From: a phage
Strand: one strand, 5' to 3'
Length of the DNA: 64,000 bases
Sequence record: PZ347661.1
Below the pieces are notes generated by a model. The model was not told the origin of the DNA. It made no database searches and saw only the letters and a list, made by a program, of their open reading frames with translations. The first letter of the stretch is position 1. Each line of letters begins with the position of its first letter. A program made the translations under genes and the position numbers. This document shows positions 87 through 51,336 of this stretch, in pieces.

Positions 87-99
87 GTTGCTCCGCAAC
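87..99 (+). promoter_or_regulatory. Hairpin promoter candidate of the N4 virion-RNAP type (stem GTTGC/GCAAC, loop TCC, then CTATGG)
   Basis: Inverted repeat with 3-nt loop read directly; same architecture and CTCCGC core as the hairpins at 756, 1016 and 5877; lies ~45 nt upstream of the first ORF. Confidence 0.5.
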
Positions 100-755: not shown

Positions 756-770
756 AGAAGCTCCGCTTCT
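756..770 (+). promoter_or_regulatory. Hairpin promoter candidate of the N4 virion-RNAP type (stem AGAAGC/GCTTCT, loop TCC, then GTTGG)
   Basis: Perfect 6-bp inverted repeat with 3-nt loop; complementary strand reads GAAGCGGAGCTTC; conserved with 1016 and 5877. Confidence 0.6.
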
Positions 771-1015: not shown

Positions 1016-1030
1016 AGACGCTCCGCGTCT
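1016..1030 (+). promoter_or_regulatory. Hairpin promoter candidate of the N4 virion-RNAP type (stem AGACGC/GCGTCT, loop TCC, then TATGG)
   Basis: Perfect 6-bp inverted repeat with 3-nt loop; same pattern as 756 and 5877. Confidence 0.6.
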
Positions 1031-5876: not shown

Positions 5877-5891
5877 AGCTGCTCCGCAGCT
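5877..5891 (+). promoter_or_regulatory. Hairpin promoter candidate of the N4 virion-RNAP type (stem AGCTGC/GCAGCT, loop TCC, then TTTGG)
   Basis: Perfect 6-bp inverted repeat with TCC loop, immediately upstream of the RNAP II genes. Confidence 0.55.
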
Positions 5892-16343: not shown

Positions 16344-16348
16344 ACTTA

Positions 16349-16376: not shown

Positions 16377-16403
16377 GTTTCAATAACTGTCCCAGGAGGA
16401 CTT

Positions 16404-16628: not shown

Positions 16629-16637
16629 GGAAACAAT

Positions 16638-17157: not shown

Positions 17158-17344
17158 CGCTACAGTAAAAAACAAAAAACAATTCTCCATCACTATTGAT
17201 GGTTTATCTGAAGAAGATTTACTAATTCTGGCTAGTTTTATGCAAAACAGTCCTTTTGGTTACAGTCCTCATGAGGAACCGGAAAAAGAACGGGAATTAC
17301 GTAAAGTAATCTTTGAAGCCTGTAAATCGGCATTAGATTCTTAA
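17150..17344 (+). CDS. hypothetical protein (64 aa)
   Basis: ATG overlapping previous stop. Confidence 0.4.
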   Translation: MANATVKNKKQFSITIDGLSEEDLLILASFMQNSPFGYSPHEEPEKERELRKVIFEACKSALDS

Positions 17345-17387
17345 TAGTCATAACCAAGAAGCAACATTTAATCTGGAGAGTAAATAA

Positions 17388-19952
17388 ATGTTAGTTGCAG
17401 ATACTAATGAAGTAGCTACCTCAGCGACACTGGGTGGCAAAGAAACAATTGCCTTTGGCATCTCTGATGACCCGGCATTCTTCCATGTATTAAGTACTTC
17501 TCTGTATAACAATCCTACTCTGGCAGTAGTCCGTGAGACTATCTGTAACAGTTGGGATGCTCATATTGAAGCAGGTAAGACTAATACTCCTATTCGTATC
17601 ACCATTGATACAGACAACTTTATTACCTTCCGTGACTACGGTAACGGTATCCCAGATGAACTCATTGGTTCCATTTATGGTGTCTATGGTGCATCTACTA
17701 AGAAAGCCAACAGTAGTGTTACTGGTGGCTTTGGTCTGGGATGTAAATCCCCATTCGCTTATACGGATAGCTTCCAGGTTACTTCATGGAACCAGGGAAA
17801 GATGTCGGTATACAACGTAGCTAAGGCTGCGATTGAGAATGATGGTAAGCCAGGTATTGTTCCTATTGTTACTGGTATTCCTACTGAGGAATCTGGTCTG
17901 GAAGTTAAATTCCAGTTAGGCAAACATGATTTAAATACCTTTATTCATTACATCAAATCAATCGTGTTTAACGGTGAGATTAAAGCTGAGCTAAGTACCA
18001 CTAAACTCGTTAAAACAGAAGAGGGCATTAGTATTCAGCAAGGTGACTACACTCTACTGAATACATTGGGTATGTCATTTGAACCCGGTTCGTATGATAT
18101 GTCTGATAGCTGGTATCAGGGTTATATGGGTAACAGTAACATTTTCGTTCGTTACGGCAACGTAATGTACCCAATTGTATCCAGTCCTGCTAGTGAAGAA
18201 GCTGTAGGTCTTATTCTCAACTTTATGAATATCATTGGTGCTTCTAATTTAGTAGTTCAAGCTGCACCAGATACTCTGGCTATTGCTCCTAGTCGAGAAA
18301 CTCTGTCTAACCAGAAGTTAACCGACGATGGTATTACTACTCTATGTGTAGATTTAGTAGACCGTATGGAGAAAGAGATTAAGGCTAAAATTCCTGAAGC
18401 TATTAAGCAGGTTGAAGAATTCGCCTCTAAATCCTCTACTCGCTTTTGGGAATATCCTTCTTTCCTGTCTGCTGTTACAAACCCAATTGTTCAACGTTAT
18501 ATGTCTTCTAGTTTGTGGGCTAAGCAACGTAAGCATCACATCAAGCACTGGCGTAACCTATCCAATAAAGCATTACTAGCTCGTCCTGAATATGCAGGTC
18601 TTAAGAAGCTGTATGGTAAAGCTATACGTGCTCTTAAGCATACGCGTACAGACAGCACCTATTTATTCCAGGATTTAGTATACCGTCACCTACACTTACC
18701 CCAACTTGCTGCTCTAAAGGCTACTGGTATTAAGTGGTCTGGTTACATAGTGAACCAGGGTAGCTGTGTTGACTTAGTAAAAGGTAAGCTTACTGATTAC
18801 TTTAAGATGACTCATCTTAGTCATTTAGGTATCGGCATATTCACTACCAAGAACGTTGTAGTTACCCGACGTTTATCTGATTGTGCAGACTCTTTCTCAT
18901 ACTTCCCTGAGTACAACCGAGGTGACTTGGAGCGTACAGCTTTTGTTCATGTCGTTGGTCCTAAGAAGGGTGCAGCAGAGGAAGCTGTAGCTAAGTTTAC
19001 TGTTATGGGTTATCGGGTAATTGACCTTACTCAATATAATGAGTGGGACAAACCAACTAACTTCCGTAGAGAACAAGCTAAGATGGCTGCTGAAAAACGG
19101 GCTAAGACAATAGCTGCCAATAAAACCAAAGCAGGAGGTAAAACCAATGCTCTGATTTCATTGAATGCAGTTCTTGATACTACCCGGGTACGGAATAAAA
19201 ATGGTGATTGGGAACCCAAGCCCTATATCCAGAAGGAATTTGCTGACCCAAGTCGCCATGAGAAGTACGGTTTCGTTGAAGTGGAGCAACCTAAGTACTA
19301 CGTACTAGCCAATCAGGTTGGTTCAGGTAGCCCAGTAACAGCCAGTATTGGAACCATGTGGAAATGGTATGAGTTGTCCGATGAGATGAAAGCAGAGACT
19401 GTTGTCTGCCGTAATCAAATCGAAGCTAACAAGGCCAAGCGACGTGGTGCTATCCACATTGATGATGTTCGCTTTATGGAACTGATGCCCGTAATTACTA
19501 GTAAAGGCTTCAAGAAGTATGTTACTGAACATCGCATCGGTATTCTGGAATACGTAGGACTGGATGACAGGGAATACTGGGAAATTCTAGACATACTGGG
19601 TCTAACCTTCAAACCATTACAGAATCTGATTTTTAAACCAGAGTATGAGTGGGCATATGACTTTCTACGGAATCGACCACATGACAACAAAGAAAAACTT
19701 GTTGAAATGGGTTGTATTAAGTCAGTGAGTGACTTAGAACCATATACAAAACTGGTTAATCCCCGTAATCATAAGTACTTTAAAATACTTAATGATTACA
19801 AAGAATTATTCAGTTATAGCTGGGCTAAAAATGACATCCTACAGACGCTGGACTTAGGTAGTTTGGTCAAACACCTTAAGAAGAATCCAGAGGATATTCC
19901 TGGGTTTAAGTCCCTCTACCGTAATCGTCTAAATAAACTGAAAGGTAACTAA
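17388..19952 (+). CDS. rIIA: rIIA-like protein (854 aa)
   Basis: Large protein with N-terminal ATPase-like region (CNSWDAH), followed directly by a second large gene as in rIIA/rIIB pairs of N4 and T4; inference. Confidence 0.6.
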   Translation: MLVADTNEVATSATLGGKETIAFGISDDPAFFHVLSTSLYNNPTLAVVRETICNSWDAHIEAGKTNTPIRITIDTDNFITFRDYGNGIPDELIGSIYGVYGASTKKANSSVTGGFGLGCKSPFAYTDSFQVTSWNQGKMSVYNVAKAAIENDGKPGIVPIVTGIPTEESGLEVKFQLGKHDLNTFIHYIKSIVFNGEIKAELSTTKLVKTEEGISIQQGDYTLLNTLGMSFEPGSYDMSDSWYQGYMGNSNIFVRYGNVMYPIVSSPASEEAVGLILNFMNIIGASNLVVQAAPDTLAIAPSRETLSNQKLTDDGITTLCVDLVDRMEKEIKAKIPEAIKQVEEFASKSSTRFWEYPSFLSAVTNPIVQRYMSSSLWAKQRKHHIKHWRNLSNKALLARPEYAGLKKLYGKAIRALKHTRTDSTYLFQDLVYRHLHLPQLAALKATGIKWSGYIVNQGSCVDLVKGKLTDYFKMTHLSHLGIGIFTTKNVVVTRRLSDCADSFSYFPEYNRGDLERTAFVHVVGPKKGAAEEAVAKFTVMGYRVIDLTQYNEWDKPTNFRREQAKMAAEKRAKTIAANKTKAGGKTNALISLNAVLDTTRVRNKNGDWEPKPYIQKEFADPSRHEKYGFVEVEQPKYYVLANQVGSGSPVTASIGTMWKWYELSDEMKAETVVCRNQIEANKAKRRGAIHIDDVRFMELMPVITSKGFKKYVTEHRIGILEYVGLDDREYWEILDILGLTFKPLQNLIFKPEYEWAYDFLRNRPHDNKEKLVEMGCIKSVSDLEPYTKLVNPRNHKYFKILNDYKELFSYSWAKNDILQTLDLGSLVKHLKKNPEDIPGFKSLYRNRLNKLKGN

Positions 19953-34722: not shown

Positions 34723-35144
34723 TATCGTGAAGGGTTCTGTTAGAATCCTTTGAGATAGGAACTCCTATCATAACCTTTCTTAACTTAATCTTTGCCGTAT
34801 GGCACTGACGCTAGGGGTGGCCCCCCATCCGTCAGGTAGACTATTTTAAGAATGGGTTATCACAGCAAATGTAAAGCAACATTCGGGTTAATCAATGGCC
34901 TCTCCCTATAGGGGCCATTTCTGAATCTTAGGCTATATCCCAAAGGTTAATATCTTTGGGATAAGGCTTCAGATCCCTTATCAACTAACCGCTCAATGTT
35001 GAGCATTTTAATCACATAAGCCCCTATATGGGCTGGGTTAAATGTCGGATAGCATAGCTACCTACAGCATCGAATTGTTAGGTCTTACATGCAAACTAAA
35101 TCATAGGGTAAAGAGGGACTCGTCCTCCCTCCCCTATTATAATG

Positions 35145-35214
35145 GTCGGGGTAGCGCGTAGGCATGTGCAGAAGGTCGCTACTTCTCTCGCTGGTTCGAA
35201 TCCAGCCCCCGACC
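35145..35214 (+). tRNA. tRNA-like element A (about 70 nt, isotype undetermined)
   Basis: 7-bp acceptor pairing GTCGGGG/CCCCGAC, U8-A9, T-arm GCTGG-TTCGAAT-CCAGC, possible anticodon stem AGAAG/CTTCT; hand fold leaves a short variable loop; no encoded CCA. Confidence 0.4.
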
Positions 35215-35765
35215 TACTGACATCCTATCAATGAGTACATTAGGCTAACGTGCGGAGGTTTACACTGTAGCCGGTGTAGGTGGAGAAGACGGCAGGATAG
35301 CTACCTGTGCTTAGTGTACTCTTTGATAGTTTTCGTAAGCGATTATGCGGTTTTTTAGAAACGAACCAATAACATAAATGCAAACGATGATGTTGTTCTG
35401 ATGGCGGCGTAATAGCCTATAAGTCAGCAAGGTCTTCCGATTCCTTGTAAACAAATTCGGCGCAGTGGCCCGCTGTGATTAATAATGGGCACACAACAGG
35501 TAAGAGCATTTAGGCTACTGAGAAATCATCCGAGGCAATCAGACCTATCTTCTGTTAAGTGCTCTTTCCGTTGTGGTGAATGTGCAGGCTGATGCGCAGT
35601 GGGACGTGGCTGACTCACGAGGATGGCTCAAGCGAATAAGCAAGCTCGACGCCGCCGAATAAGCGCCTTATGCCGGAGATCAGTACCGGCCACCACAACA
35701 AGTCCAGACGATATCTGAGTGACTATAAAAACAGATGGAGCCAGGTGGAATCCCTGGCAACTAAT

Positions 35766-36401: not shown

Positions 36402-36475
36402 GCCCACTTAGCTTAGACAGGGAAAGCAACCGACTAATAATCGGAAGGTCACTGGTTCAAATCCAGTAGTGGGTA
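36402..36475 (+). tRNA. tRNA candidate D (74 nt cloverleaf, anticodon uncertain)
   Basis: Acceptor GCCCACT/AGTGGGT (G-U first pair), D stem GCTT/AAGC, anticodon stem CCGA/TCGG with loop CTAATAA, T-arm ACTGG-TTCAAAT-CCAGT; the hand fold gives an unusual AAU anticodon. Confidence 0.45.
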
Positions 36476-36791
36476 CTTATTTGCTGCAATATTCCCATAG
36501 GGAATGGTGCCGTATACGCCACCTAGTTTCTGGTGAAACTCCAGATGCAGCAATCCATTCAGCAGTAACATAGTCCTGATTGCATTGCACTCTAAAGACA
36601 ACACTGGTAAGACAGTCCAGTGACTGCTAATGTACTGTTATTCCCCTCGACGGGAATTTCGCTAGTGAAGGTAACACTTAAAAATCCAAACCTACGTCTT
36701 ACTACTATCGGGCTATCAACCCACAGTCGCTTAACACACTAGTGGTAGTAGTTTGACGGCCTAGCCTCGTTAGCTGCGTTAAAGCTACTAA

Positions 36792-37367: not shown

Positions 37368-37449
37368 TTCAAAGGTGTATGGTAGTTTTTACCGAAAGGT
37401 ACTGAACTACCCGACAAAGTAGTAAGGCTCAAGAAGCCAAAACAAAACA

Positions 37450-37472
37450 AGCCCTCCTAGCGAGGGCTTTAT
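37450..37472 (+). terminator. terminator-like hairpin
   Basis: AGCCCTC-CTAGC-GAGGGCT then TTATCATTT. Confidence 0.5.
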
Positions 37473-37984: not shown

Positions 37985-38009
37985 AAGCCCCTCATTAGAG
38001 GGGCTTTTT
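37985..38009. terminator. terminator hairpin between convergent + and - strand gene blocks
   Basis: AAGCCCCTC-ATTA-GAGGGGCTT with TTTTC on the + strand; sits between the stop at 37978 (+) and the stop at 38013 (-). Confidence 0.6.
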
Positions 38010-38012
38010 CAT

Positions 38013-41000
38013 TTAGTTAGTGAGGTTGAGCCAAGGGTTCAGGTTATGAGCACGTAAGCCTTGACCGAAACCGAAGGAGTAACCAAGGTTGCCTTGTGCA
38101 GCAATGCTAAAGATGTTGTCCTGAATAGGCAGGCCAACGTTACCAAACATAGTAGGAGTTGGAGCCAGCATAGCCATAGCAGCATGTACAGGGTTGTTAC
38201 GAATCATGGACACTGCAACTTTTGCGGAACGAATCTTAAAGTTGTAGAACCACATAAGACCAACGCTTTCCATATAACCACGGAAGCGTCCTGGCAAACG
38301 GTCATAGTTAATGAACTCTTCCGTCACACGTCCAAGTGCTTCTTCACGGGTTTTACCTTTACGCTTAGTCAGTTCATCATAGATGATCGCTTTAGCAATA
38401 AAGTCAGAGTACTCAACCGTCTTCTGGATACCCTGGAAGAGAGCAGTATCCTTAGTGATAAGTGCATAACGACCTGCATTGCGTACAGACTTAGGCAGCT
38501 TATCAGCCAGCTTATCCATGTATTCGTGGAGTTTGCCCTCAGTAATCAGGATGTCATCACGTCCAATACCAGCATCTGCAATTGAGGAGAACTCACCTGC
38601 TTCTAGCAGAGGCCAGATACTCAAACGCTTATGACTATCCGTGATGGACTGAATCTCAGCTTTCAACTTACGAATCTGGTTCGGGTTAGTAGCTGCACGT
38701 AATTCTGCTTCTGCATCTACCTGACGTAAACGAGATTTCAGATACTGGTTAATCTCAGCAGTCTTCTGTGGAATGCTCTTAGCAATGTTCTTAACGGGTA
38801 CACCACGAGCAACCATCTGATAAAGGTTAGCCAGGAAGTTAACAGCAGGTACGACTACTGACTTAACTACAATCAGAGTCTTAGCTTCTTTAACTAAGTT
38901 TTGAACCAGGTTCTCACCACCCATTACATACTTGTAGGCACGGTTGCCGAATACACCCAACATAGCCTTCTTGAAGGTATCCAGCGTTTCTGGGGACCAA
39001 CGAGAATTACCAGACCAGGCATCACCAACGGAAGCTGCACGATAACCAAGAGCATCATTAAGCATGTCACGACGTACCCACAGCTCACCTGGGCCAAACA
39101 GACTTTCTGCTTTCTGACGTGTTTCACTGTTCATCAGTTTAAGAGCATCGGCAGTTACTGGGTCCAGTTTAGAACCAAGAAGGTTAACGTACTGAGACTT
39201 ATTAGAAGCAGACATCTTAATGTCGTTCTCATACATGCTATACAGATTCTCAATTAGCATATCGTTGAAACGCTGGGCCTTGGCCTCTTCTACCTGACGA
39301 CCACGCCATACACCAATTGCACGAGCAAGATGGTTCTCACCCTCAATGTGCTTCAGCATGTTAGGGTCAATGGATTGCTCATAAGCAACCACATTACCAT
39401 TGGCATCATATACAGGCAGAAGTGGTTCATTACCTCGTTCACCACGAGCCAGTGCTTTGGTGATACGGTCCACGGAAGGCTTGTCAGTAATACGACCTGC
39501 TACCATGGTTCCCATCGTAAAGCCTGTACCAAGGTCTACACCACCAGCAGTATTACGAACGTTCTGTAAGATACCCTGTGAGAATGGAGCCTGTGACTGT
39601 ACTGGTGCAAAGTAGTAGCTACGTGCTGGACCACGATTAGCAGAGCTACCCTGATAAGTACCCAGACGTACATAAGACTTCTCAATCAAATCAGCAAATT
39701 GATTATCTTCAGCAACAATCAGGTTAACACCTTGTTTGTTCTCACCAGGGATATACCCTTTGTACTGGTTCAAGGTTGCACGCGAATCAGACTTGGCTTT
39801 AGCCATTTCATCCTTACGTTGACCAACCAGGTAAGAAGTAGCAAAGTCCATACCTTCAATTTCTGTCTGAGCCAGTAAAGATAACATCTCACGGTCAGAT
39901 TTATTCATTGCTTCCAGTGCATACAGGGTAATGAGTTTATCCAGTTGAGCTACATCAACAACAGAGCGTGTAGTCTTACGCTCACCCAGCAAGCGTGAAA
40001 TTGCAGTAGCATTACGCAACAAGTTATTTCCGACTGTACCATTAATCATGTACTGAGCCAGTTGCTTAGATTTACGGCTAATCAGATGCCAGTTACGTCC
40101 TGCTTGTTTCTGCAAATCTGCTTCCAGTTTATTAACCTCACGGTCAACAATCTTCTGGTCAGACAACAGGTCACGAATTTCAGCCAGAGACATAGTGTCA
40201 CGCAGGACAGCTAAGTCAGTTTTACCCATACCGGTATGCATTGCTTTCCACTCAACATTAGTCAGCTTACGGCTGAACTTAGATGCGATAGTGGTAGGCA
40301 GGTGTTCACGGAACTGTTGACGGTCAGCCTGTACCTGTGCACGTACTGCTTTAATCAAATCATATACAGAAGCATTACTCTTAGTACGACCGATTATGTC
40401 ATTAACCAGGTCATGGAACGGTTGCCATACTTTACCCTGGTTCATTGCAGCCATAACACCTTCAGCTACGATTGAACCATTCTTCTCTGTAGCAATAGCA
40501 GCTACCAGTTGTGCAGCATGAGCAGCACCTTTAACCAATGGGTTCTTGGTATTAGCTGCAACTTCACGAGCACCTTCCAAAGCACGGGTAGACAGTACAT
40601 CAATAGAATCCACCAGATACTGGTTAGCACGGTCAATAGCATTACCGGTAGGAGTAGCAACGGAATCATAGAAGGACTCTGCATTAAGACTGGTCTGCAT
40701 AATTGTCTGAGCTAGTGCATCCATACCTTCTTGTACGTTAGTGGCTTTAGTATCGCCTGCTACACGGGCATTCAGACTAGCCATTGCAGCAGTACCGATG
40801 TTAGTCAGCATTGCATCAACAGTATTGCCTGACTTCTTATCTGCTTTCATAACAGGAATATCAGCCAGTACTTTACGTACCTCTTCACTTACCATTGCCA
40901 GACCAACAAAGGTAGGCAGCAAGGAAGAACGACCCTGTGCATCAAACTCAATGTTGTTAGCACCCATGATGGTATCGAACTTCTGCTGTGCATAGTAACG

Positions 41001-44000
41001 GTCAGCAGGGTTAGTACTATCTGGGTCAGCCATGAACGATTCAACAGTTAGGTTCTTAGTAACGTGTGTGTAGTATTCCTGTGCACGAGCCATGGCAGCT
41101 GGGTTAATAGCAGCCTCGGTAGCCAGTGCAGCAACAATGTTAGTGAAGAGACGCTGTTCCTGCATATTCATGGTGAAGCCATGAGCCTGAACATCACGAG
41201 TTACTTTAGTTGCATTCACTACTGCATCAGAGAACTTACCTTTACGAATTACTTGCTGTACTGGTTCTGAACCAATGTAGTCAGTAATCAGTTTATCGAA
41301 GGTTTTTCCTAACTCTTCCAGACGAGTATTGTTACCGTATGCTTTGTTATGGAACAGGGTAGTGTCCTTAGCTACAGCAGCAGTAGGAGCCTGTCCACGC
41401 ATAACTACAGCAGAGTTAAACAGTAAGCCAGAGAACATATCATCTGCATTAGACGGAGCTTTCTTACGTCCAAATACCAGGCGTTTGATTGCTTCATATA
41501 CAGCCTGAGCCATAGCTTTAAGTGCAGTGGTTTTCTTCTGCTTACCAATCAGTTCACGGTTAGTTAAGCCCCAAGCCATGTACTCATTCAATGCAGCAGC
41601 TTTAGCCATTGCTGGTTCAATGAAGCCATTGGACAAGTGACCATTAATGGTATTCAGTGCATCAGCATATGCTTCACGTACTACCGGAGATTCATCCTTA
41701 ACATCCAGAGTACGGAATTGGTTCATCAGGTCTTCAATATTCTGGACAGCTTCATTAGGAGTACCCTCATAGTGAGCCAGTACAGATTCAAAAGTAGAGG
41801 CATGTACTAATTCATGAACCAGAGTCTCTAAGGAAGGGGTAACTAAGTAGATGGTCTTATCTTCAAAGTTAGTCCAGCCATATGCATTACCAGCTTCAGC
41901 AGCTTCAATATCTTCCGGTGCAGGGCGAGTAATATTCTTCTCAATAGCGTAGGCATCCAGTTGAGAAGGTGTACCGTAAACAACCTTATAGTCTTTAGCA
42001 GCAAGAGATTTCTGTATTTCTTTCAATACTGCTTGCTGTTCAGGAGACATCTCTTTAGCCAGCTTAGTGATAGCAGTATTAGACAGCAGACGTACACCAG
42101 ACTTCAGTACACGACCTACCTTCTCCATAGCTGGTACAACTTTCACCGGCACTTCCTTCACTGGTTCTGCCTTCGTTGGTTCCGCTTTAGCAGCACGTAC
42201 TGCTTCACGACGCTTGTTTAGTTCAGCATCAAACAGCTCGTTCAGCTTAGCTACTTGCTGGTCTACAGTCAGACCTTCCAGAGAGATTTTACCGTTGTTC
42301 ACATAAGGAGCACCTACAGCAGCCATCTGGTCAACAGTGACCTGTACCTGGTCCATTACCTTGTGACGAATATCTACACCCAAAGCAATGTTACGCAGGT
42401 TACGCTCAATCAGTGCAATACCAGAATCTCTAATCATAGAAATTTTATAATCTCTATCACCATCTACTCTGGCAATATGAGCACGTTGCTCAAAGTCTAA
42501 AGCAGACTTTGCAATAGCATCTATTGCTGAATCGGACAGCTTATTTAAATCAACATTCTTAACAAACTTAGAGAAAGACTCATATACATTCTTGATAGGG
42601 TTACCCTGCCAGGAAGTATATACAGCCTCATTAGCTTTACGGCTTGCATCAGTAATGTCATTAATACCAATGTTCATACCATCAAAGATTTTCAGGGTAT
42701 TCTTCGGAGCACCTTTCATAGTAGAAAGAGTCTGCATCATCATGCCATCACCAGTACCGATGGTCATAAATGGAATACCTGCAACACCTGCTTGCGAAGG
42801 AGCATAGATGCTCATTGGCACACGCATACGGTCATCTAAGTTGGTGGCCAGTACTTGGTTAGCAACATCAGTGTTTTCACTACCAGCAATGTAGAAAGTC
42901 TGTGAGCCAGTCTTAATCATTGGAGCCAGTGGTGCTAAGCTATTCTGGATTTCATTCAGTTCTTTCTGTGTTAAGAAATCGCCTTTTTTCCATGTTGGGT
43001 CTTTTTCTTTTTCTGCCAGCTTAGCCTGTACTGCCTGTTGGAACATATCCTGCAATACCAGAGATTGTATCTGAGTAGCCTTCTGCAAGTTCTCAGTAGA
43101 GTGCATCAACCCTTCACCAACAGTAAATCGGATACCTTGTCTCATTGGCTCAACAAAGAAATGCAGCATATTCTCTTGTAAGTTCTTCAGAGCATCCCCG
43201 GATACGGTAAACTCCTGAGGATTTAACTCACCAGTCAGAACACCATCTACTTCCTTAATAAATAACCTACCTTTGCGTTTGGCTGGAATCTTGCCAGTCA
43301 ATGCTTCCATAGAAGTAAGGAAGGTATCCAGCATAGCCTGAGCATCAGCTTCAGAAGCAGCCTCCTTACCAAACATCGCCATAGCTGGGGAAATGCTAGG
43401 GTCAGCAGCACGGGCTTTTAGAACGTCGCTTAAGCGTTCATAGATGGCGTCAGTAATTGCACTTACCATCTTGCCTGCAATACCGCGAGCACCAGAACCA
43501 TAAATGGTAATAGTCAGTGGGTTTTTAGCGATACCACGCTTCAGGTCCAGAGTACCATCTTCATTAAGATTGAAGTCTTTGATGAACAGGTCCATTAACT
43601 TCTGGAGATGGTCCATCTGATTTATAATAGGAATATTTTTGCTGTAAGTATTGCGTAGTTCATTCAGATGGAATTGCAGACTATTGGTAGATGCTTCATA
43701 CAGGTCAACATTATCATCCTGAGTATGATGCTCATTCATAGTCTTACCGGCTTTACCGAAGAACAAACCACCTTTAGCAGTATTCTTAATCCAGTTTGGG
43801 GTGAACTTACCACCAGTCATTAATACCATTGCGTTGATTGGCCCGTTGGTTACACCATCGGCTTCAACGTACAGTGGGGTATTAAAGTTGGCTCGGTCAT
43901 CACTGTTAAGGTAACGGGCATATTCCATAAGAGCCATGAGAGCTACAAATGATTTATCATTACCCAGAGATGTTCTCAGGATATCCACTGCGTCAGCAGG

Positions 44001-47000
44001 CAAGTATCCAGACTTATCAAACTCAACCATCATATCTACAGCAGGCTTCAGTTTACCTTCCAGAGCCTTGGTAAGTTCTTCTGACATAGTTTCACGAGTC
44101 ATTTTATGAACTTTGATACCCAATGCCTGAGCCAGACCTAACTGGAAGCCAGAGAAGTCTTCATTGTTTTGGTTCGATAAATCCAGAGTAGCTTTAGTAG
44201 GTAAGATAGCCTCACGAACCAGCTTAGCTGATTGAGGATTGTATTTGCCCAACATCTGCATACGACCAACACGGGTCATATTGTAAGCATAGTGAATAGG
44301 TACAGAAGAAATGTCTTCACTCTGTGCTCTCACCTGTTCAATAACAGAGAACAGTTGGTTGTAAGAATCTTCTACAGAACGATTCTTACCTTCCAGAGAT
44401 TTAGCATGGTTCTTATTAAGTAAATCCTTATCCAGAGTACCTGCACCCATCAGTTCAAGGATACGGTCTTTACCTAATGCTTCATAGAACTGAACCATTG
44501 GAGTATGTACAAAGAACTCAGTAGCCTGTTCTGCTTTAAGAGCAGCTTTCTGTTCTGGAGTATTACGGACAGCAGGGTTACGTAACTGAGTAGGAGCCAC
44601 TGAAGGAATATCATCACCCAGGTACAATTTCTCTTCTGGTTCTACGAGGACAGCTTCCTCGATAGCAGTAGGGAATTTGTTAATGGCATCGTTATCATCC
44701 AGTTTCTCAATGGTATACAGACCAATAGTCTTATTAGATTCTGGGTCAATTTCAGACACATCAAGCATAGACTCTTTAACTTCACCCATCTCAATGAGAG
44801 AAGACAGAATCTCTGTAGCCATTGCCATTGGAATACCTTTGGTATAACCCAATGGTGCATCAGCATTACGATTAAGTCCCCAATAAGATTCAATCTTTTG
44901 AGCCAGTGAGTTAGTAGCTTCTACTAAGGTTTGTGCATTCTCAAATTCTGCGAGGATGCCCTCTGGTAACAAGGAAGCATTTACACCAGTAATTGCAGCC
45001 ACATCCTGCATGTCTTTAATAGCAGCATTCTGTGTAGCAGTAAGTCGCCATTGCAGACCAGCAAGTACAGCAGTCTCTAATAACTGGTCATTGAACTTAA
45101 AGGTATCACCATCTTTCTCTACGATGTTAAGCAGTTTGCCACCTACCCAACGGTTAGCCTCAGTACCCTCTGCAAAACGTTTACCAACATTCTTGTTAGC
45201 AAGGAACTTAGCCAGACGATCAGACAGAGTAGTCTTCAGAGTTTCACCAAAATCAAATAAGTCCTGGTAACGCTTAATCACATCACTTGTGAGAGCGTTA
45301 TTTTCTCTTTGAGTGAATGCTTCAAAACGAGCAGCAGAAGACAATGCTTTCTTAACATCAGTCAAAGGAGATTCAGAACCAATGGTACGAGACTTAGGTT
45401 CTTCTGGAAGAGAAAATGCTTTAAGGAACTGGTTCGGTGTCTTGTCGTTGTTATAGACAGGGAACACTGTTTCTATTCCCGATAGAGGTTTACCGCCAAC
45501 GGTATAGTCTGCTTTCAGTTGAGCCAGTGATACTTCTTCCTTCTCGACGTTATTGGTATTAAGCCCAGATGTATCTACACCAATCTGAATCAGTGCATTG
45601 TTTGCTTCTACGAATGATTGAACAGTATTAAATTGTTCCGGGGTCAGCTTCTGGTTATCAAACAGTTGCAAAGATACAAATGGTTGTTCACTACCTTTGT
45701 AGAAGGTAGAGCGAATAGCACCAGTATCTAAAGACATATCACGATAACCATCATGACCAAATACATCAGACAGACTGATATGGTCACCATTAGAACCAAC
45801 AACAGTACCATCAGCAAAGAGCCATGGACTTTCCCTACGGTCACCATACTTATTAAGAGTATCTTGTGAAATAGTATTCTCTTTCACATAAGAATCTCTT
45901 TCAGATTCAGTAGGCTGTTCAACGGTATCCTGTTTTTCAGACTGGTTCTCAGGTTCTTTTACAGTCTGTGGTTTAGACTCTTTATTAGTAGGTTCTGTTT
46001 TAACAGCTTCACTAACAGAGGGTTTAGTCTGTACAGTAGGGGTAACTGGTTCCTGTTTCGTAACAGGAGTTTCATCAACCTGATTCACTGGTTCATTGGT
46101 CTGTTGGGATTGAGCAGCATCAAGATTGCCCTGACGGAACTCTTTAACTACCTGGGCAGCAGGCTTGTCCAGACGTGAATCCAATGGGGTAACTTTCACA
46201 TGAGAAACATTAAGCTCCGGGTAAGCCGTAGCAAGTGCGTTAGCAATATCAGCTACGGTCTTGGCTTCCAGTCCTACTTGCTGGGCAAACTTAACAGACT
46301 TGGTATCATACGGATTGACACCGAGGCCAGTACGACTACGTACCCATTCACGCGAGGGAGTAAGAGCCTGATAATGGACAGACTTATTCTTATCCGCATT
46401 CCCAGAAATCAGATGCTCATTCAACGCTCCGACCTTATTCTGCATGTGCTGGGCGAACTTCATAAAGTCGTCGAGATAAGCGGAAGCCAAATCGAAGTTA
46501 CCAGAGTTGTACGCAGAACGAATGCGTTTAGCATGTTGCAACGCAGAGTACTGGCCTTCATTAGAACGAGATTCGTCGGTTTTAATTTGTTTACTAACAA
46601 TGTCTTGAGGACGTAAGCCTAGTTCTTCTGCTTTAGCGTCAAATTCTCGTGCTCCTTGCAATAGAGCAGCAGCAGATTGCAGGGCAGCACGCTGACGATT
46701 CCCCAGTGTAATCTTACCTTCACTCGCATGTTTCAGAACCATGTTCACTGAATCTGCATCCAGTACTTCTGGAGACACATCAGCAGCCATAGCAATATTG
46801 TTTGCCTGGGCTTGGTTAGCTTCTTCAGTAGCTTTCAGTTTACCTGCTTCAGCCTGTTCCTGAATCATGGAATGAATGGCACGGAATGCACGGAGTACTT
46901 TCGGTGTATTCTGAACATTAGCCATCAGGCCGGAGAACTGGTCAACGATATTAGCAGCAGGAGAACCCTGTTCCAGATTAGCTAATGCACCTGGGTCACG

Positions 47001-48848
47001 GTTAATGAAGCTATCCATAGACATGATGTTGTCATACATCTGGATTGCAGCTTCCATTTGAACGTTAGGGTCTTCAGCAGTATTAACCAGGTCAGCCATC
47101 TTCTGAATAGCTTCAACACGGTTAGTGGAACCAGAAACAGCTTCACGGATTGCAGGACTAGCTTGTTCCAGTTCTACTGGGTCAAACTTCATTGCCTGAG
47201 TTAAGTCAGCAGCATACTGAGTAGCAGCAGCTTTCTCTTCAGGAGAAATATCCATTGCATCTACTGCTTCCTGAACAGTTGCTTGTGCTTGTTCTGCCTG
47301 AGCAGTAGCTTCCTGTGCAGCAGCGTTAACTGTAGCATCTGATACAGGGGATGCTTGTTCATTACGCTTAGCAACTTCTTCTCCACGTTGAACCAGAATG
47401 TTAGTAATAGGTGAAGCTACTTTTGCTAATGCCTTACCAGCCAGAGAAGCACCAGCCAAGGTAGTACGTACAGCAGGACCAACGGCAGCACCAGCAGCCT
47501 TAACAGTTGCACCAGGAGCTTGAGCAACTCCAGCAGAACCGAAGCCGTACAGTGCACCCAGACCTGCTTGCTCACCAACACCTTTGAGGATGTCACGAGA
47601 TGCATCAACATTACCTTGGATTGCCTTGTTCTGTGCAAACTGACTTGTACCAGACTGGATACCTTCTTCTACAGTCTCACGCAGCATGTTGGAACCAGCA
47701 CCAGCCAGTGAACCTACCTTAAGTGGATTAAGTTCAAACTTGGATACCAATGGAGCAGTAAGAGCAGCAACTGGAGCAGTTAAACCAGCAGCAGTGATAC
47801 CTGTTTCAGATGCAGTCTGACGTCGTGCCTCTTCAGGAGTTAAGCCGTCTTTAATGTGTTGTTGGTATACAGGAGATTTAGCAGCCAGTTCACTGAATGG
47901 CATTTCCATAATTTCATTGGCAGTCTGTTGATATGCACCACCAGCTTCCATACCACCAATTGCTATAGCAGGTGCAGCAATACGACCAGCAGTCTGTGCA
48001 ATCCGTGCAGGACGTGAACCTAACTCAGCAGCTAAGGTAATACCCTTAACAGCTTTGTCCCCACCTACCATTACTTTACCAAGTGCGGATACACCACGGA
48101 TAAGTGGACCACCAGTGAAGAGAGAACCAACGCCTTCAGCCAGACCATCTGTAGCAGCCATGCCATTGGACAAGGTATTAGCAACAGAATCATAAGCATC
48201 CCGACCAATTCGAGACAGAGAAGCAACGAGTTCACTTTCTCCTTTAGCAATATCCTGCTTATAGAGTTTCTCATTTTCCTGTGCAGATATTACGTTCTGG
48301 TTCTGTACTACATTACGACGAGCATTCAGTGCATCAGACTGTAGGTTGTGTACACCTTTATTCAACCAGTCAAGACCGGAAGCAATGGATGCCCCGGCAT
48401 TATCATTGACCAAGCCTGTGCCAAGAGCAGCAATGCCCCCAAGGGTATTAGCAACACCAAGACCAACACCAGAAAGGGTATCACCAAGTGCTTCACCATA
48501 TGTGCGACTCTTAGTTAAATCACGACGAACAGCATTAGCTGCATTGACACGAGCATTGAGAATGTCCATTCCTTGCTCATTGCCATACTTGTTTACGATT
48601 TCAAGAGGGGAGGCATTAGTAAAATCTGCCTGAATAGAACCTGGGTCAAATGCACCAGCACCTAAGTCACCGGCACGTCCTGCCTGTAATTGGTAAGCGT
48701 TCTGAGAAGTTAATTGGAAAGGGTTTTGCCCTTGTTCAGCTTGTTTCCGAGAGGTTGCAGTAGAGACATCGACTTGCTTAGCAGTAGTGATGCTGTCTGC
48801 GAAACCTGCCAGACGGTCAAATGTTGACATAGCATGATTCCTGTTCAA
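38013..48848 (-). CDS. virion-encapsidated RNA polymerase (N4 gp50-like vRNAP, 3611 aa)
   Basis: Single giant ORF at the late-region position where N4 encodes its ~3500-aa vRNAP; internal KNPLTITIYGSGARG resembles motif B of T7-like single-subunit RNAPs. Confidence 0.85.
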   Translation of the reverse strand: MNRNHAMSTFDRLAGFADSITTAKQVDVSTATSRKQAEQGQNPFQLTSQNAYQLQAGRAGDLGAGAFDPGSIQADFTNASPLEIVNKYGNEQGMDILNARVNAANAVRRDLTKSRTYGEALGDTLSGVGLGVANTLGGIAALGTGLVNDNAGASIASGLDWLNKGVHNLQSDALNARRNVVQNQNVISAQENEKLYKQDIAKGESELVASLSRIGRDAYDSVANTLSNGMAATDGLAEGVGSLFTGGPLIRGVSALGKVMVGGDKAVKGITLAAELGSRPARIAQTAGRIAAPAIAIGGMEAGGAYQQTANEIMEMPFSELAAKSPVYQQHIKDGLTPEEARRQTASETGITAAGLTAPVAALTAPLVSKFELNPLKVGSLAGAGSNMLRETVEEGIQSGTSQFAQNKAIQGNVDASRDILKGVGEQAGLGALYGFGSAGVAQAPGATVKAAGAAVGPAVRTTLAGASLAGKALAKVASPITNILVQRGEEVAKRNEQASPVSDATVNAAAQEATAQAEQAQATVQEAVDAMDISPEEKAAATQYAADLTQAMKFDPVELEQASPAIREAVSGSTNRVEAIQKMADLVNTAEDPNVQMEAAIQMYDNIMSMDSFINRDPGALANLEQGSPAANIVDQFSGLMANVQNTPKVLRAFRAIHSMIQEQAEAGKLKATEEANQAQANNIAMAADVSPEVLDADSVNMVLKHASEGKITLGNRQRAALQSAAALLQGAREFDAKAEELGLRPQDIVSKQIKTDESRSNEGQYSALQHAKRIRSAYNSGNFDLASAYLDDFMKFAQHMQNKVGALNEHLISGNADKNKSVHYQALTPSREWVRSRTGLGVNPYDTKSVKFAQQVGLEAKTVADIANALATAYPELNVSHVKVTPLDSRLDKPAAQVVKEFRQGNLDAAQSQQTNEPVNQVDETPVTKQEPVTPTVQTKPSVSEAVKTEPTNKESKPQTVKEPENQSEKQDTVEQPTESERDSYVKENTISQDTLNKYGDRRESPWLFADGTVVGSNGDHISLSDVFGHDGYRDMSLDTGAIRSTFYKGSEQPFVSLQLFDNQKLTPEQFNTVQSFVEANNALIQIGVDTSGLNTNNVEKEEVSLAQLKADYTVGGKPLSGIETVFPVYNNDKTPNQFLKAFSLPEEPKSRTIGSESPLTDVKKALSSAARFEAFTQRENNALTSDVIKRYQDLFDFGETLKTTLSDRLAKFLANKNVGKRFAEGTEANRWVGGKLLNIVEKDGDTFKFNDQLLETAVLAGLQWRLTATQNAAIKDMQDVAAITGVNASLLPEGILAEFENAQTLVEATNSLAQKIESYWGLNRNADAPLGYTKGIPMAMATEILSSLIEMGEVKESMLDVSEIDPESNKTIGLYTIEKLDDNDAINKFPTAIEEAVLVEPEEKLYLGDDIPSVAPTQLRNPAVRNTPEQKAALKAEQATEFFVHTPMVQFYEALGKDRILELMGAGTLDKDLLNKNHAKSLEGKNRSVEDSYNQLFSVIEQVRAQSEDISSVPIHYAYNMTRVGRMQMLGKYNPQSAKLVREAILPTKATLDLSNQNNEDFSGFQLGLAQALGIKVHKMTRETMSEELTKALEGKLKPAVDMMVEFDKSGYLPADAVDILRTSLGNDKSFVALMALMEYARYLNSDDRANFNTPLYVEADGVTNGPINAMVLMTGGKFTPNWIKNTAKGGLFFGKAGKTMNEHHTQDDNVDLYEASTNSLQFHLNELRNTYSKNIPIINQMDHLQKLMDLFIKDFNLNEDGTLDLKRGIAKNPLTITIYGSGARGIAGKMVSAITDAIYERLSDVLKARAADPSISPAMAMFGKEAASEADAQAMLDTFLTSMEALTGKIPAKRKGRLFIKEVDGVLTGELNPQEFTVSGDALKNLQENMLHFFVEPMRQGIRFTVGEGLMHSTENLQKATQIQSLVLQDMFQQAVQAKLAEKEKDPTWKKGDFLTQKELNEIQNSLAPLAPMIKTGSQTFYIAGSENTDVANQVLATNLDDRMRVPMSIYAPSQAGVAGIPFMTIGTGDGMMMQTLSTMKGAPKNTLKIFDGMNIGINDITDASRKANEAVYTSWQGNPIKNVYESFSKFVKNVDLNKLSDSAIDAIAKSALDFEQRAHIARVDGDRDYKISMIRDSGIALIERNLRNIALGVDIRHKVMDQVQVTVDQMAAVGAPYVNNGKISLEGLTVDQQVAKLNELFDAELNKRREAVRAAKAEPTKAEPVKEVPVKVVPAMEKVGRVLKSGVRLLSNTAITKLAKEMSPEQQAVLKEIQKSLAAKDYKVVYGTPSQLDAYAIEKNITRPAPEDIEAAEAGNAYGWTNFEDKTIYLVTPSLETLVHELVHASTFESVLAHYEGTPNEAVQNIEDLMNQFRTLDVKDESPVVREAYADALNTINGHLSNGFIEPAMAKAAALNEYMAWGLTNRELIGKQKKTTALKAMAQAVYEAIKRLVFGRKKAPSNADDMFSGLLFNSAVVMRGQAPTAAVAKDTTLFHNKAYGNNTRLEELGKTFDKLITDYIGSEPVQQVIRKGKFSDAVVNATKVTRDVQAHGFTMNMQEQRLFTNIVAALATEAAINPAAMARAQEYYTHVTKNLTVESFMADPDSTNPADRYYAQQKFDTIMGANNIEFDAQGRSSLLPTFVGLAMVSEEVRKVLADIPVMKADKKSGNTVDAMLTNIGTAAMASLNARVAGDTKATNVQEGMDALAQTIMQTSLNAESFYDSVATPTGNAIDRANQYLVDSIDVLSTRALEGAREVAANTKNPLVKGAAHAAQLVAAIATEKNGSIVAEGVMAAMNQGKVWQPFHDLVNDIIGRTKSNASVYDLIKAVRAQVQADRQQFREHLPTTIASKFSRKLTNVEWKAMHTGMGKTDLAVLRDTMSLAEIRDLLSDQKIVDREVNKLEADLQKQAGRNWHLISRKSKQLAQYMINGTVGNNLLRNATAISRLLGERKTTRSVVDVAQLDKLITLYALEAMNKSDREMLSLLAQTEIEGMDFATSYLVGQRKDEMAKAKSDSRATLNQYKGYIPGENKQGVNLIVAEDNQFADLIEKSYVRLGTYQGSSANRGPARSYYFAPVQSQAPFSQGILQNVRNTAGGVDLGTGFTMGTMVAGRITDKPSVDRITKALARGERGNEPLLPVYDANGNVVAYEQSIDPNMLKHIEGENHLARAIGVWRGRQVEEAKAQRFNDMLIENLYSMYENDIKMSASNKSQYVNLLGSKLDPVTADALKLMNSETRQKAESLFGPGELWVRRDMLNDALGYRAASVGDAWSGNSRWSPETLDTFKKAMLGVFGNRAYKYVMGGENLVQNLVKEAKTLIVVKSVVVPAVNFLANLYQMVARGVPVKNIAKSIPQKTAEINQYLKSRLRQVDAEAELRAATNPNQIRKLKAEIQSITDSHKRLSIWPLLEAGEFSSIADAGIGRDDILITEGKLHEYMDKLADKLPKSVRNAGRYALITKDTALFQGIQKTVEYSDFIAKAIIYDELTKRKGKTREEALGRVTEEFINYDRLPGRFRGYMESVGLMWFYNFKIRSAKVAVSMIRNNPVHAAMAMLAPTPTMFGNVGLPIQDNIFSIAAQGNLGYSFGFGQGLRAHNLNPWLNLTN

Positions 48849-48892: not shown

Positions 48893-48918
48893 AGAGAAAA
48901 GCCCCGGATGGGGCTTTA
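48893..48918 (-). terminator. intrinsic terminator between the 648-aa gene and the vRNAP gene
   Basis: On the - strand AAAGCCCC-ATCC-GGGGCTTT followed by TCTCTT. Confidence 0.5.
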
Positions 48919-48933
48919 TTAGTATGTAAGATT

Positions 48934-50880
48934 TTATCGAGGTTGCATATAGGGAGGTAAACCCTCTGCTAATTTTAGGTAACGTTTAGCACGTTCTTCA
49001 TCTTCACGACTACGTTCACGCTCTACTGAAGCATTAGAACGGAAGTTCTGTGGAACCAGGTTTCCTTGGTCAGCCACTACAGTATTGACAGCAGCATCTA
49101 GTGCAGCCCGTGCTCTTGCTAACTCAGCTTCACGAGCAGGGATAGTAGCAGCAAGCCCACTTTGCCCAGCAGCTACACGACGACGAGTATCAGCAAGTAA
49201 GGCTTCTGCTTGTGTTACCTGGTTCTGGGCATTAGCAATATTACCCTGTACCTGGGTAAGAACATTATCACGAGCAGTAGCTTCAATACCTTCCCCACGT
49301 CGTACCGAACGTGCCAGTTCTCTGGCAACGGTATCGTCAATACGAATTCCATTACCACCTTCCGGTGATTTCCCTGGTGTAAGCGCATCCCAGGTACGAC
49401 CGAGGATACCTTCCGGTACGTTGGTAATAGACTGCTTAAGAATCTCAGCAGCTACAGCAGGAGACTGTCCGGATTCCTGCATAACTTTATTCAGTCGAGC
49501 TATCATCCATCCTTTCTCAGAACCTTTGAAAGCATCCTTAAGAAGACGGTCTGCCACTTCACCAATGGTAGAATTATCACGCAATGCACGAGCATAGTTA
49601 GCAGTAATGGTTCCAGTATTATCTTCCGACTGACGTGCAGCAACTGTATTGCCTGCCATGTTTGAAACTACTTGCTGGGTCTGTAGCTGGTCAATAGGTG
49701 CACCTACTTCTGCCTGTGCAATTAACTGACGTGCTTCACTCCATGGCATGTCCTTATAACCACCCACACCCAAGTCAGGCAATGCTGCCCAAGTCTTGGA
49801 AAGGTTACCATTCTTACGGTCATTGAAGATTGCTTCAGCTATTTTGTCCTGTACTTCAGGAGTCATTTGCTGATTACGCCAACCTGAACCAAGTACTTTG
49901 GGGGCATAGTCTTCCAGAGTAGCTTTATTAATCTGGAATGCACCTACAGGAGAATGACCTTGTGATGGGTTATTAATCATAGTTTGCTGATGATTAGTAA
50001 CCTCTCCCAGTGTCATCTCGGTAATAGGCTTATCAGTAGCAGCAAAGGTATATGTTGCATCATAAGGGGAACCAGAACGAGTACCAGCAGTTCCTGGAGC
50101 AGAGCCAGAAGAAGACGTAGCATAAGTACCAGGGAATCTCTGGTTCACACCTCGCATGATTGCAGCACGTACACCAGGAGAAGCATTCTGCATAGCAGAC
50201 TCTGCCAGTGTAAGAGCATCCATAGGTGTGGAAGCACTACGGAAAATATCAGTCAGTATACCGGATGCAGCTTGCGAATCAGCATCATTACGCTGAGCCA
50301 CACCCAAATCAAAGCGGTTCTGTGCTTGGTTAATAGCCTGACCACCCTGACCTTGAAGACGACTCAGCATATCCAGTTGTTGGTCAGCAGGAAGTGCAGA
50401 CAGTGCCTCACGAGTCTGATTCAATGCAGCATTAACACGGTTCTGGTCACCAGACTGATAAGCCTCAGATAATAAACGGATAGCTGGGGATGCATTATCT
50501 AATGCAGAATCAGTATTCTGTAAACGATCAAAACGATATGCATTGTAATCATTAATTCCCTGCTGACCTTGTTGAGTCAGAAGAGTACCTGCTCGCTCAT
50601 CCAGATTCTGGAGGGTATGTTGGTTTACCAGTGATGGGTCAACTCCCTGGAACAATGCACCAGATGCCAAAGCATTGCGATACTCAGTAGGGTCTTGATA
50701 CTGCATAGCATTCATCATGACGGCATTGCCAGCCTCCTGCTTGGCAGCGTTCTGGAAGTTACCCAGTGCATCACTTAAGCCGGAGGTGGCGTTACCAATC
50801 ATGCTTCCAAATGTGCGAATGCTGTCACCAACTCCAGAAAAGTTAGGTGCATCAACATTACGCCATGTAATCTGAGCCAT
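48934..50880 (-). CDS. virion protein (N4 gp51 position, 648 aa)
   Basis: Large ORF in the late operon; role inferred from synteny only. Confidence 0.55.
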   Translation of the reverse strand: MAQITWRNVDAPNFSGVGDSIRTFGSMIGNATSGLSDALGNFQNAAKQEAGNAVMMNAMQYQDPTEYRNALASGALFQGVDPSLVNQHTLQNLDERAGTLLTQQGQQGINDYNAYRFDRLQNTDSALDNASPAIRLLSEAYQSGDQNRVNAALNQTREALSALPADQQLDMLSRLQGQGGQAINQAQNRFDLGVAQRNDADSQAASGILTDIFRSASTPMDALTLAESAMQNASPGVRAAIMRGVNQRFPGTYATSSSGSAPGTAGTRSGSPYDATYTFAATDKPITEMTLGEVTNHQQTMINNPSQGHSPVGAFQINKATLEDYAPKVLGSGWRNQQMTPEVQDKIAEAIFNDRKNGNLSKTWAALPDLGVGGYKDMPWSEARQLIAQAEVGAPIDQLQTQQVVSNMAGNTVAARQSEDNTGTITANYARALRDNSTIGEVADRLLKDAFKGSEKGWMIARLNKVMQESGQSPAVAAEILKQSITNVPEGILGRTWDALTPGKSPEGGNGIRIDDTVARELARSVRRGEGIEATARDNVLTQVQGNIANAQNQVTQAEALLADTRRRVAAGQSGLAATIPAREAELARARAALDAAVNTVVADQGNLVPQNFRSNASVERERSREDEERAKRYLKLAEGLPPYMQPR

Positions 50881-50892: not shown

Positions 50893-51336
50893 TTAACGGG
50901 TTAATTTATTAGCTGCAATATAAGCATCAGCAGTAGACTGGTCACGGTTCTCTGCAACAGCACGACTACGAGCACGGTCTTCCAGTGCAGTGTTATAAGA
51001 CTTAATCTGGTTATTCAGGTTAGTGTTAGTAACACTCTTAGCAAAGTTCAACTGGTCTTTGGCTAACTTATTGGCCTGGAAACCACTATAGATATTAGCT
51101 AATGAACCAAGTGCACCCAGTCCTAACTGAAATGTGGGTACGTTCATACCCAACTGATTGGCCGAACCAGACATGAACGAAGTAGGGGCAGATGCACCCA
51201 AATTCGTACCCATACCAATAGCTGCACCTGGGTTATAGTTCATAGCCGGGGTATTAAAGTTCTGATTGTTATTAGACATCCAAGACATAGCTGCTGGCTG
51301 TGGGGTTTGGTTGCCTGTTAAGAATGACAAATCCAT
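50893..51336 (-). CDS. virion protein (N4 gp52 position, 147 aa)
   Basis: ORF in late operon; Asn/Gly/Ala-rich. Confidence 0.5.
   Translation of the reverse strand: MDLSFLTGNQTPQPAAMSWMSNNNQNFNTPAMNYNPGAAIGMGTNLGASAPTSFMSGSANQLGMNVPTFQLGLGALGSLANIYSGFQANKLAKDQLNFAKSVTNTNLNNQIKSYNTALEDRARSRAVAENRDQSTADAYIAANKLTR

Follow-up and report, generated by a model that had tools for sequence, protein, structure and literature searches.

Results

A gp50-Type Virion RNA Polymerase Gene

The 64,000-nucleotide (nt) stretch of phage DNA analyzed here (sequence record PZ347661.1, the whole of which is called the window below) contains one giant open reading frame (ORF) on its minus strand that, judging from its sequence, is the gene for the virion RNA polymerase (vRNAP, gp50) of a G7C-type Gamaleyavirus (Schitoviridae, Enquatrovirinae). 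As a gene it offers no novelty; what is informative is how the length of its product differs from that of phage N4, a difference that consists of one additional domain, predicted to be globular, in the linker that joins the N-terminal domain (NTD) to the polymerase domain. A preliminary description of this DNA had reported a gene of 3611 residues and had not stated its strand. It was found that the ORF is indeed uninterrupted from 38013 to 48848, with 3611 codons when counted from the furthest in-frame TTG (48848); however, an ATG is present six codons inside this TTG, at 48830, with the sequence AGGA (48839–48842) located 8 nt upstream. Translation from the ATG begins with MSTFDRLAGF, compared to MSVFDRLAGF in N4 gp50, and this start equals that of the annotated coding sequence (CDS) of phage vB_EcoP-ZQ2 (ZQ2). 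The true start is almost certainly the ATG at 48830, which would give a protein of 3605 amino acids (aa) and not 3611. The gene takes up 16.9% of the window, in line with the one sixth given previously, and its single giant ORF is within the size range of N4-like vRNAPs (about 3,400–3,750 aa) and adjoins the genes for the gp51 and gp52 ejection proteins.

In a megablast comparison with a phage collection, the best match was ZQ2, with 94.5% nt identity over 100% of the gene and the annotation "virion RNA polymerase"; 59 phage records covered at least 80% of the gene, and an identical nucleotide sequence was not found in the collection searched. The protein was 97.6% identical to the ZQ2 vRNAP (QWY13177.1), without a gap, frameshift, or stop over 3605 aa, and 66% identical to N4 gp50. 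Four Pfam vRNAP models (N4_RNAP_helical, with an E value of 3.9e-100, vRNAP_dom_2, vRNAP_dom, and vRNAP_plug) were matched above the gathering cut-off, which is 27 for each of them: PF21894 scored 334.6 bits, PF21867 186.5, PF21769 176.6, and PF21624 (plug) 91.7. PHROG 2206, "virion RNA polymerase", matched aa 25–3604, and the matches in the PDB at E = 0 were the full-length N4 gp50 cryo-electron microscopy (cryo-EM) chains and the mini-vRNAP crystal structures (2PO4/3C2P/3Q0A).

All of the functional residues that we checked were identical to those of N4, namely the TRVGR sequence, D1658, R1765/K1769/Y1777 of motif B, D2050, the promoter contacts, and the HELVH sequence (Table 1). We take D1658 and D2050 to be catalytic, on the basis of the mini-vRNAP literature. 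The element TITIYGSGARG, previously noticed as motif-B-like and deep inside the protein, is at aa 1773–1783 (nt 43482–43514), where it overlaps a perfect T7-family motif B, Rx3Kx7YG (RGIAKNPLTITIYG). It is surrounded by a T7-like domain (aa 1120–2213) in which four motifs are conserved, as anticipated by the suggestion that a polymerase domain is embedded in a larger polypeptide. Residues W1228, K1213, R1218, D2000, and R2003 correspond to N4 W129, K114, R119, D901, and R904, which contact the hairpin promoter in N4 (PMC4496689). Taken together, the Pfam, PHROG, and structure matches and the conserved catalytic and promoter-binding residues bear out the earlier naming of the product as a virion RNA polymerase.

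The gene is already known, being an allele of the polymerase annotated in dozens of G7C-type genomes, for the N4 prototype of which there are full-length structures. Several orthologues carry other labels in GenBank: "DNA polymerase" in HK2, PD205, U1G, and PBM-2, "gram positive anchor domain protein" in ECBP1, and "translation initiation factor 2" in phi G17; in the pSb-1 record, the orthologue is split into three ORFs. Such mis-annotation and splitting were probably caused by the low-complexity linker or by sequencing frameshifts.

The Extra Length Is Essentially One Block

N4 gp50 has 3500 aa (RefSeq record YP_950528.1 and PDB chains), and the excess in the protein described here is therefore 105 aa, close to the roughly 100 residues estimated in the preliminary description. 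Alignment with N4 gp50, which had been proposed as a check, located this excess. In a global alignment it was found at aa ~991–1128 relative to N4 aa ~1004–1024, the other indels being at most 7 aa and largely cancelling. A tblastn comparison of N4 gp50 with the window gave exactly two segments, one of N4 aa 1–1004 that ended at nt 45861 and one of N4 aa 1008–3500 that started at nt 45479. A multiple alignment set the insert at aa 977–1119 (ERDSY...GKPLSG), directly before the conserved (I/M)ETVFPVY that opens the polymerase region. The extra length is essentially one block of ~143 aa that replaces a short stretch of the NTD–polymerase linker, which in N4 is disordered. The G+C content is 0.444 for the whole gene, 0.414 for the adjacent linker, and 0.396 for the insert; a foreign origin was not argued from these values, the insert being too close to the linker.

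Distribution of the Insert

A tblastn search with aa 701–1500 separated the Gamaleyavirus records into two classes, those with the insert (a span of 2400 nt) and those without it (about 2000 nt). The insert-bearing class includes ZQ2, St11Ph5, pSb-1, Bp4, ECBP1, and PhAPEC5, and the insert-less class includes AN24P2 (flanks 92.8% identical), PhAPEC7 (vRNAP of 3450 aa), IME11, phi G17, PGN829.1, SP5M, and UE-M3. The vRNAP of G7C (3748 aa) was found to contain the shared domain and, a few residues upstream in the same linker, a second, unrelated insertion of ~150 aa. Therefore, with no insertion in PhAPEC7 and AN24P2 and two in G7C, the linker is a variable slot. The second insertion of G7C (VPNGPEMKTAEFTGKQQATYMQIGQYFDYNGKEY...; within HQ259105.1 42023–45869, reverse complement) is absent from the window, ZQ2, and N4. 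A preprint on G7C comparative genomics deals with insertions in the genes for RNAP2 and the DNA polymerase, but not with any in the vRNAP gene.

The insert itself was used as the query in a tblastn search of 50,697 phage records, and it was found in 29 G7C-type records only, always inside the vRNAP; a metagenomic copy with 33% identity, used as the query, gave the same distribution as the copy from the window. N4, Klebsiella phage KP8, Moo19, Achromobacter, and other schitoviruses gave no match to the insert by tblastn and only partial query coverage in the search with aa 701–1500, and the absence of the insert from N4 was seen directly in the alignment. Because N4 and the other searched schitovirus genera gave no match to the domain, parsimony favors a gain of the insert within Gamaleyavirus; recombination among these phages and the presence of the same domain in a distant vRNAP (see below) leave room for loss or re-acquisition. 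The lineage-specific insertions proposed earlier are thus partly upheld: an extra block exists, but it is a single one of ~143 aa and not several, and it is specific to a sub-lineage and not genus-wide.

Predicted Fold, Conservation, and Relatives of the Insert

An AlphaFold2 model based on a 20-sequence alignment (mean predicted local distance difference test score (pLDDT) of 88.2; predicted template modeling score (pTM) of 0.80) consisted of a compact α/β domain of ~125 residues with five helices, followed by a disordered tail. The insert is not low-complexity sequence, and its ratio of nonsynonymous to synonymous substitutions (dN/dS) was 0.04 relative to both G7C (dS 0.84) and ZQ2 (dS 0.39), which indicates that it is under strong purifying selection.

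When 1.84 billion representative proteins were searched exhaustively with phmmer, 23 homologues of the insert were obtained, most of which lie inside giant multi-domain proteins with the hallmark domains of polyvalent proteins. The latter were described as giant, multi-domain proteins that accompany the DNA on delivery and have a zincin-like HExxH domain at their core (Iyer et al. 2017, PMC5512222). The domain sets of the carriers were SLT, SNF2-type helicase, methylase, and LPD39 in one case and methylase, ddrB-ParB, and LPD39 in another, with InPase, LPD22, or LPD38 in others. The gene for one carrier of 3253 aa (methylase, ddrB-ParB, LPD39, and an insert-type domain that is 65% identical; ENA ERZ22349082 NODE_43, 10001–19762) is located right after the tail genes on a ~43-kb contig of a P22/SU10-like phage with Arc and antirepressor genes; a megablast search with this locus found nothing similar in complete E. 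coli genomes or the phage collection. A second, annotated "LPD7 domain-containing protein", adjoins mobC on a plasmid of Vibrio cholerae, on which a type IV secretion system coupling protein is encoded as well. A third is a very distant vRNAP, 23–25% identical in the polymerase and C-terminal domain (CTD) and with motifs A and B recognizable, in which the insert-type domain occupies the corresponding position and likewise immediately precedes the polymerase. The closest copies outside vRNAPs are 65–66% identical, and this level of identity suggests a fairly recent exchange.

The residues invariant in the family alignment are Ser-Pro-x-Leu, Gly, Asp-His, Arg, and Gln, which correspond to S1001, P1002, L1004, G1008, D1016, H1017, R1040, and Q1066. 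When the insert and 19 homologues were scanned against Pfam, PHROGs, NCBIfam, and PADLOC, matches were at chance level only; a profile search against PDB sequences gave no credible match for the family, word-indexed homology searches with the insert and then with its profile gave nothing useful, and the insert did not match the LPD and PBECR models now in Pfam. The insert family appears to be uncatalogued in the databases searched, the LPDs having been compared only through the models now in Pfam.

Domain Layout, Neighboring Genes, and Candidate Early Promoters

The coordinates of the vRNAP domains and motifs and of the surrounding features are given in Table 1. The HExxH region of subdomain C1 appears to be homologous to N4 aa 2130–2448, which were assigned to the MPTase superfamily (PMC5512222), and the HExxH of N4 C1 was described previously (PMC13434306 and PMC5512222). 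In subdomain C2, the unannotated PHROG 19273 (a profile of 4846 positions) matched aa 2807–3552 (nt about 38175–40412) with an E value of 1.4e-24; therefore, part of the vRNAP CTD is common to another family, whose members are even larger phage proteins.

Table 1. Features of the vRNAP gene and its surroundings in the window.
Feature	Residues (aa)	Position (nt)	Strand	Remarks
vRNAP (gp50 orthologue) CDS	3605 aa + stop	38013..48830	-	same start and length as ZQ2 CDS
NTD	1-901 (N4 1-906)	46128..48830	-	61% identity to N4
Linker 1, low-complexity P/T/E/K/Q-rich part	902-976	45903..46127	-	aligns with N4 linker 907-1006
Inserted globular domain (predicted)	977-1119	45474..45902	-	indel boundaries; AlphaFold2; dN/dS
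Insert, predicted folded core	986-1110	45501-45875	-	AlphaFold2 model
T7-like single-subunit RNA polymerase domain and N4-specific plug	1120-2213 (N4 1008-2101)	42192..45473	-	73% identity to N4
T/DxxGR motif TRVGR	1519-1523	44262..44276	-	identical to N4 aa 1417-1421
Motif A, presumed catalytic Asp D1658	1658 (N4 mini-vRNAP D559)	43857..43859	-	context TPLYVEADGVTNGPI identical to N4
Motif B RGIAKNPLTITIYG, with R1765/K1769/Y1777	1765-1778	43497..43538	-	identical to N4 aa 1663-1676
Motif C, presumed catalytic Asp D2050	2050 (N4 mini-vRNAP D951)	42681..42683	-	context KNTLKIFDGMNIG conserved
Linker 2	2214-2237 (N4 2102-2123)	42120..42191	-	alignment to N4
C-terminal subdomain C1, zincin-like	2238-2481	41388..42119	-	63% identity to N4
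HExxH motif HELVH	2339-2343	41802-41816	-	conserved with N4 at 2228
C-terminal subdomain C2, large helical	2482-3605	38016..41387	-	72% identity to N4 aa 2376-3500
gp51 homologue (ejection protein), immediately upstream of vRNAP gene		48934..50880	-	47% identity to N4 gp51 over 608 aa
gp52 homologue (ejection protein)		50896..51336	-	61% identity to N4 gp52
Bidirectional terminator-like hairpin, between the converging genes and the vRNAP stop		37985..38006		9-bp stem, 6 G-C pairs, T runs on both strands
Candidate early promoter hairpin GTTGC-TCC-GCAAC		87..99	+	template loop GGA; N4 equivalent nt 90-102
Candidate early promoter hairpin AGAAGC-TCC-GCTTCT		756..770	+	N4 equivalent nt 557-573
Candidate early promoter hairpin AGACGC-TCC-GCGTCT		1016..1030	+	followed by TATGG; without counterpart in first 5 kb of N4
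Candidate early promoter hairpin AGCTGC-TCC-GCAGCT		5877..5891	+	N4 equivalent nt 4546-4562, upstream of RNAP1 gene

The window is colinear with N4, the synteny of gp48 to gp52 being maintained. The gp48 and gp49 homologues, on the plus strand, converge on the minus-strand vRNAP gene, and on its other side is the homologue of gp51, for which a role as an ejection protein was reported in N4 (PMC13434306). The terminator-like hairpin is located at the point of transcription convergence, 7 nt from the vRNAP stop codon, and a similar hairpin was found at 37449–37469. In the 100-nt gap between the gp51 and vRNAP genes there is a G+C-rich hairpin with a T run (AAAGCCCCATCCGGGGCTTTTCT; 48895–48920, minus strand), which was not listed by a consensus terminator scan; its sequence and position suggest a partial termination or processing signal between gp51 and gp50. 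ARAGORN found a tRNA-Ala(CGC) at 35144–35215 and a tRNA-Ile(AAT) at 36402–36476, both on the plus strand, between the replication genes and the gp48/gp49 homologues.

The cognate promoters would be expected to be hairpins with a stem of 5–7 bp and a 3-nt loop with a central purine, located upstream of early genes. The pattern GCTCCGC-N6-TGG occurred four times, always on the plus strand and within the first 6 kb, compared to 0.05 occurrences expected by chance. These hairpins have a 5–6-bp stem and a 3-nt loop that is TCC on the plus strand and GGA on the template, so that the central G is at the position of the N4 -11G, and a conserved TGG comes after each of them. For three of the four, there is a counterpart by position in N4, in which three hairpins are at comparable places, and the hairpin at 1016–1030 may be an extra early promoter. 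Therefore, on the basis of the synteny and the four hairpins, the polymerase, its neighbors, and its likely cognate promoters are all present.

Discussion

Linker 1 of this vRNAP contains one autonomous, conserved, and selectively maintained domain, which is polymorphic within the genus and has relatives in giant proteins that are injected or transferred. We are highly confident in the combined reading that the gene encodes a Gamaleyavirus gp50 orthologue with an autonomous domain in its linker, presumably an accessory module.

As to what the domain does, we propose that the linker tolerates accessory modules, which the vRNAP would carry with it into the cell; this fits both the concept of polyvalent proteins and the "beads-on-a-string" model of the enzyme. 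The insert would then act early in infection, on the cytoplasmic side and close to the site of entry through the membrane. A more speculative reading, which we consider less likely than not, is that the linker is an exchangeable cargo slot and that the insert is an undescribed enzymatic or host-targeting effector, with a function in anti-defense or host takeover, that is shared horizontally among injected giant proteins of phages and plasmids, is delivered tethered at the site of DNA entry, and could shape the range of infectable strains; G7C would then have two such cargos and PhAPEC7 none. Because the Asp-His, Arg, Gln, and Ser residues of the family are invariant, an enzymatic or ligand-binding role seems more likely than that of a pure spacer.

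A serious rival, although in our view the less likely one, is the idea that the insert is an inactive structural bead that makes the connection from the membrane-anchored NTD to the polymerase longer or stiffer, or that aids ordered packing or passage through the tail. It would account for the location of the insert, since the N4 linker is simply disordered, and for the existence of related phages that do without it, and it is consistent with the lack of a recognized catalytic fold. However, polyvalent proteins of phages and of a plasmid contain the same domain in unrelated architectures and at different positions, which would not be expected of a lineage-specific spacer; the polar residues D31, H32, R55, Q81, and S16 (domain numbering) are invariant at about 30% identity; and the strong purifying selection noted above also speaks for more than a spacer.

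It is unlikely that the insert is specifically a metal-independent nuclease or RNase-like effector, of the tRNA-splicing endonuclease/Hjc type or BECR-like, that attacks host or defense nucleic acids on entry. The weak structural matches that recurred most were to tRNA-splicing endonuclease, Hjc, and RecU, and we regard these endonuclease-like matches as a lead and not as a finding. In the model, the predicted placement of the invariant Asp-His at a helix N terminus, together with Arg and Gln/Thr, would resemble the sites of metal-independent RNases, and PBECR RNases are known partners of N4-like RNA polymerases (PMC5512222). However, no PD-(D/E)xK-type acidic motif is conserved in the insert family. 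A BECR/PBECR RNase, for which the criterion was an N-terminal helix and a 4–5-stranded sheet with His and a C-terminal Thr/Ser, was considered and rejected: there was no Pfam match for 20 family members, and barnase, EndoU, colicin, and RelE were not among the top structure matches.

A selfish element, such as a mini-intein, that is removed from the mature protein is highly improbable. The size of about 130–143 aa resembles that of a mini-intein, presence varies among members of the genus, and insertions of introns or homing endonucleases do occur in other polymerase genes of Gamaleyaviruses. However, this explanation was excluded on the basis of the fold, the junction residues, and the absence of Hint matches: there was no match to the Hint/intein models of Pfam, the predicted α/β fold with five helices is not the all-β Hint fold, the junctions are without a Cys/Ser/Thr nucleophile or a terminal His-Asn, and the homologues are flanked by linkers in many different host proteins. 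Finally, we give practically no credence to an assembly artefact or pseudogene, or to extra length made up of many small scattered insertions, for despite the three-way split of the pSb-1 orthologue the alignment to ZQ2 is gap-free, an equal length is annotated in several independent genomes, and the remaining indels relative to N4 are short.

For the rest of the protein, the identities to N4 of 61% for the NTD, 73% for the polymerase, 63% for C1, and 72% for C2 lead us to expect the same mechanism, and by analogy there would be no reason to expect a different one. In N4, the virion contains a few vRNAP copies, which exit through a gp52/gp51 channel (PMC13434306, PMC13492108, and PMC4496689); the C-terminal region was reported as needed for encapsidation, and the plug module and the motif B loop are the means by which the helical CTD keeps the polymerase autoinhibited (same sources). 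The NTD of N4 was proposed to insert in the membrane and to take part in genome injection (PMC13434306 and PMC4496689). The N4 linker (aa 907–1006) is a low-complexity stretch of ~100 aa that tethers the polymerase domain and was not resolved by cryo-EM (PMC13434306 and PMC13492108), and linker 2 was likewise invisible (PMC13434306). By analogy, a few copies of the vRNAP described here would be packaged in the capsid through the CTD and ejected through a channel of gp51 and gp52, after which the NTD would anchor in the inner membrane and the central T7-like domain would transcribe the early genes, starting at hairpin promoters that are extruded on the template strand near the left end of the genome. 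The helical CTD would autoinhibit the polymerase as in N4.

The results are mainly of specialist interest, in that they identify an uncatalogued accessory domain and a variable linker slot. In N4, this linker has been described as a disordered tether of a "beads-on-a-string" enzyme; within a single genus, the number of additional folded domains in it varies from zero to one or two. If the domain is an effector, the natural presence/absence variants among near-identical phages would be a ready system for tests of vRNAP-borne cargo, and would also help to test how much folded mass passes the ~30–35 Å tail channel.

Compared to other phages, the closest relatives are the insert-bearing G7C-type phages ZQ2, St11Ph5, pSb-1, EC1-UPM, Bp4, and ECBP1, which have the same gene with the same insert; ZQ2 also has the same length of 3605 aa and the same neighboring genes, and differs by point changes only. 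The insert-less phages PhAPEC7, AN24P2, IME11, and phi G17, as well as G7C with its two insertions, belong to the same genus and are 87–93% identical in the flanks around the linker. N4 gp50 (PDB 9PNQ/9PNR/9PNT and 11GP; mini-vRNAP 2PO4/3C2P) has the same architecture, which is NTD, linker, polymerase with plug, linker, HExxH-containing C1, and helical C2, with 61–73% identity per domain, and the hairpin promoters and gp51/gp52 neighbors are likewise shared. However, N4 gp50 has only a disordered linker of ~100 aa where the protein described here adds a folded domain of ~143 aa (3500 versus 3605 aa). The N4 vRNAP has already been classed as a polyvalent protein, and some lineages add ART, lysozyme, or PBECR domains (PMC5512222). 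Like the polyvalent proteins of Iyer et al. (2017), the vRNAP of this window is large, is encoded among virion genes, and appears to carry a zincin-like HExxH region, and its insert is shared combinatorially with proteins that contain LPD7, LPD22, LPD38, LPD39, ddrB-ParB, InPase, SLT, SNF2-type helicase, and methylase domains.

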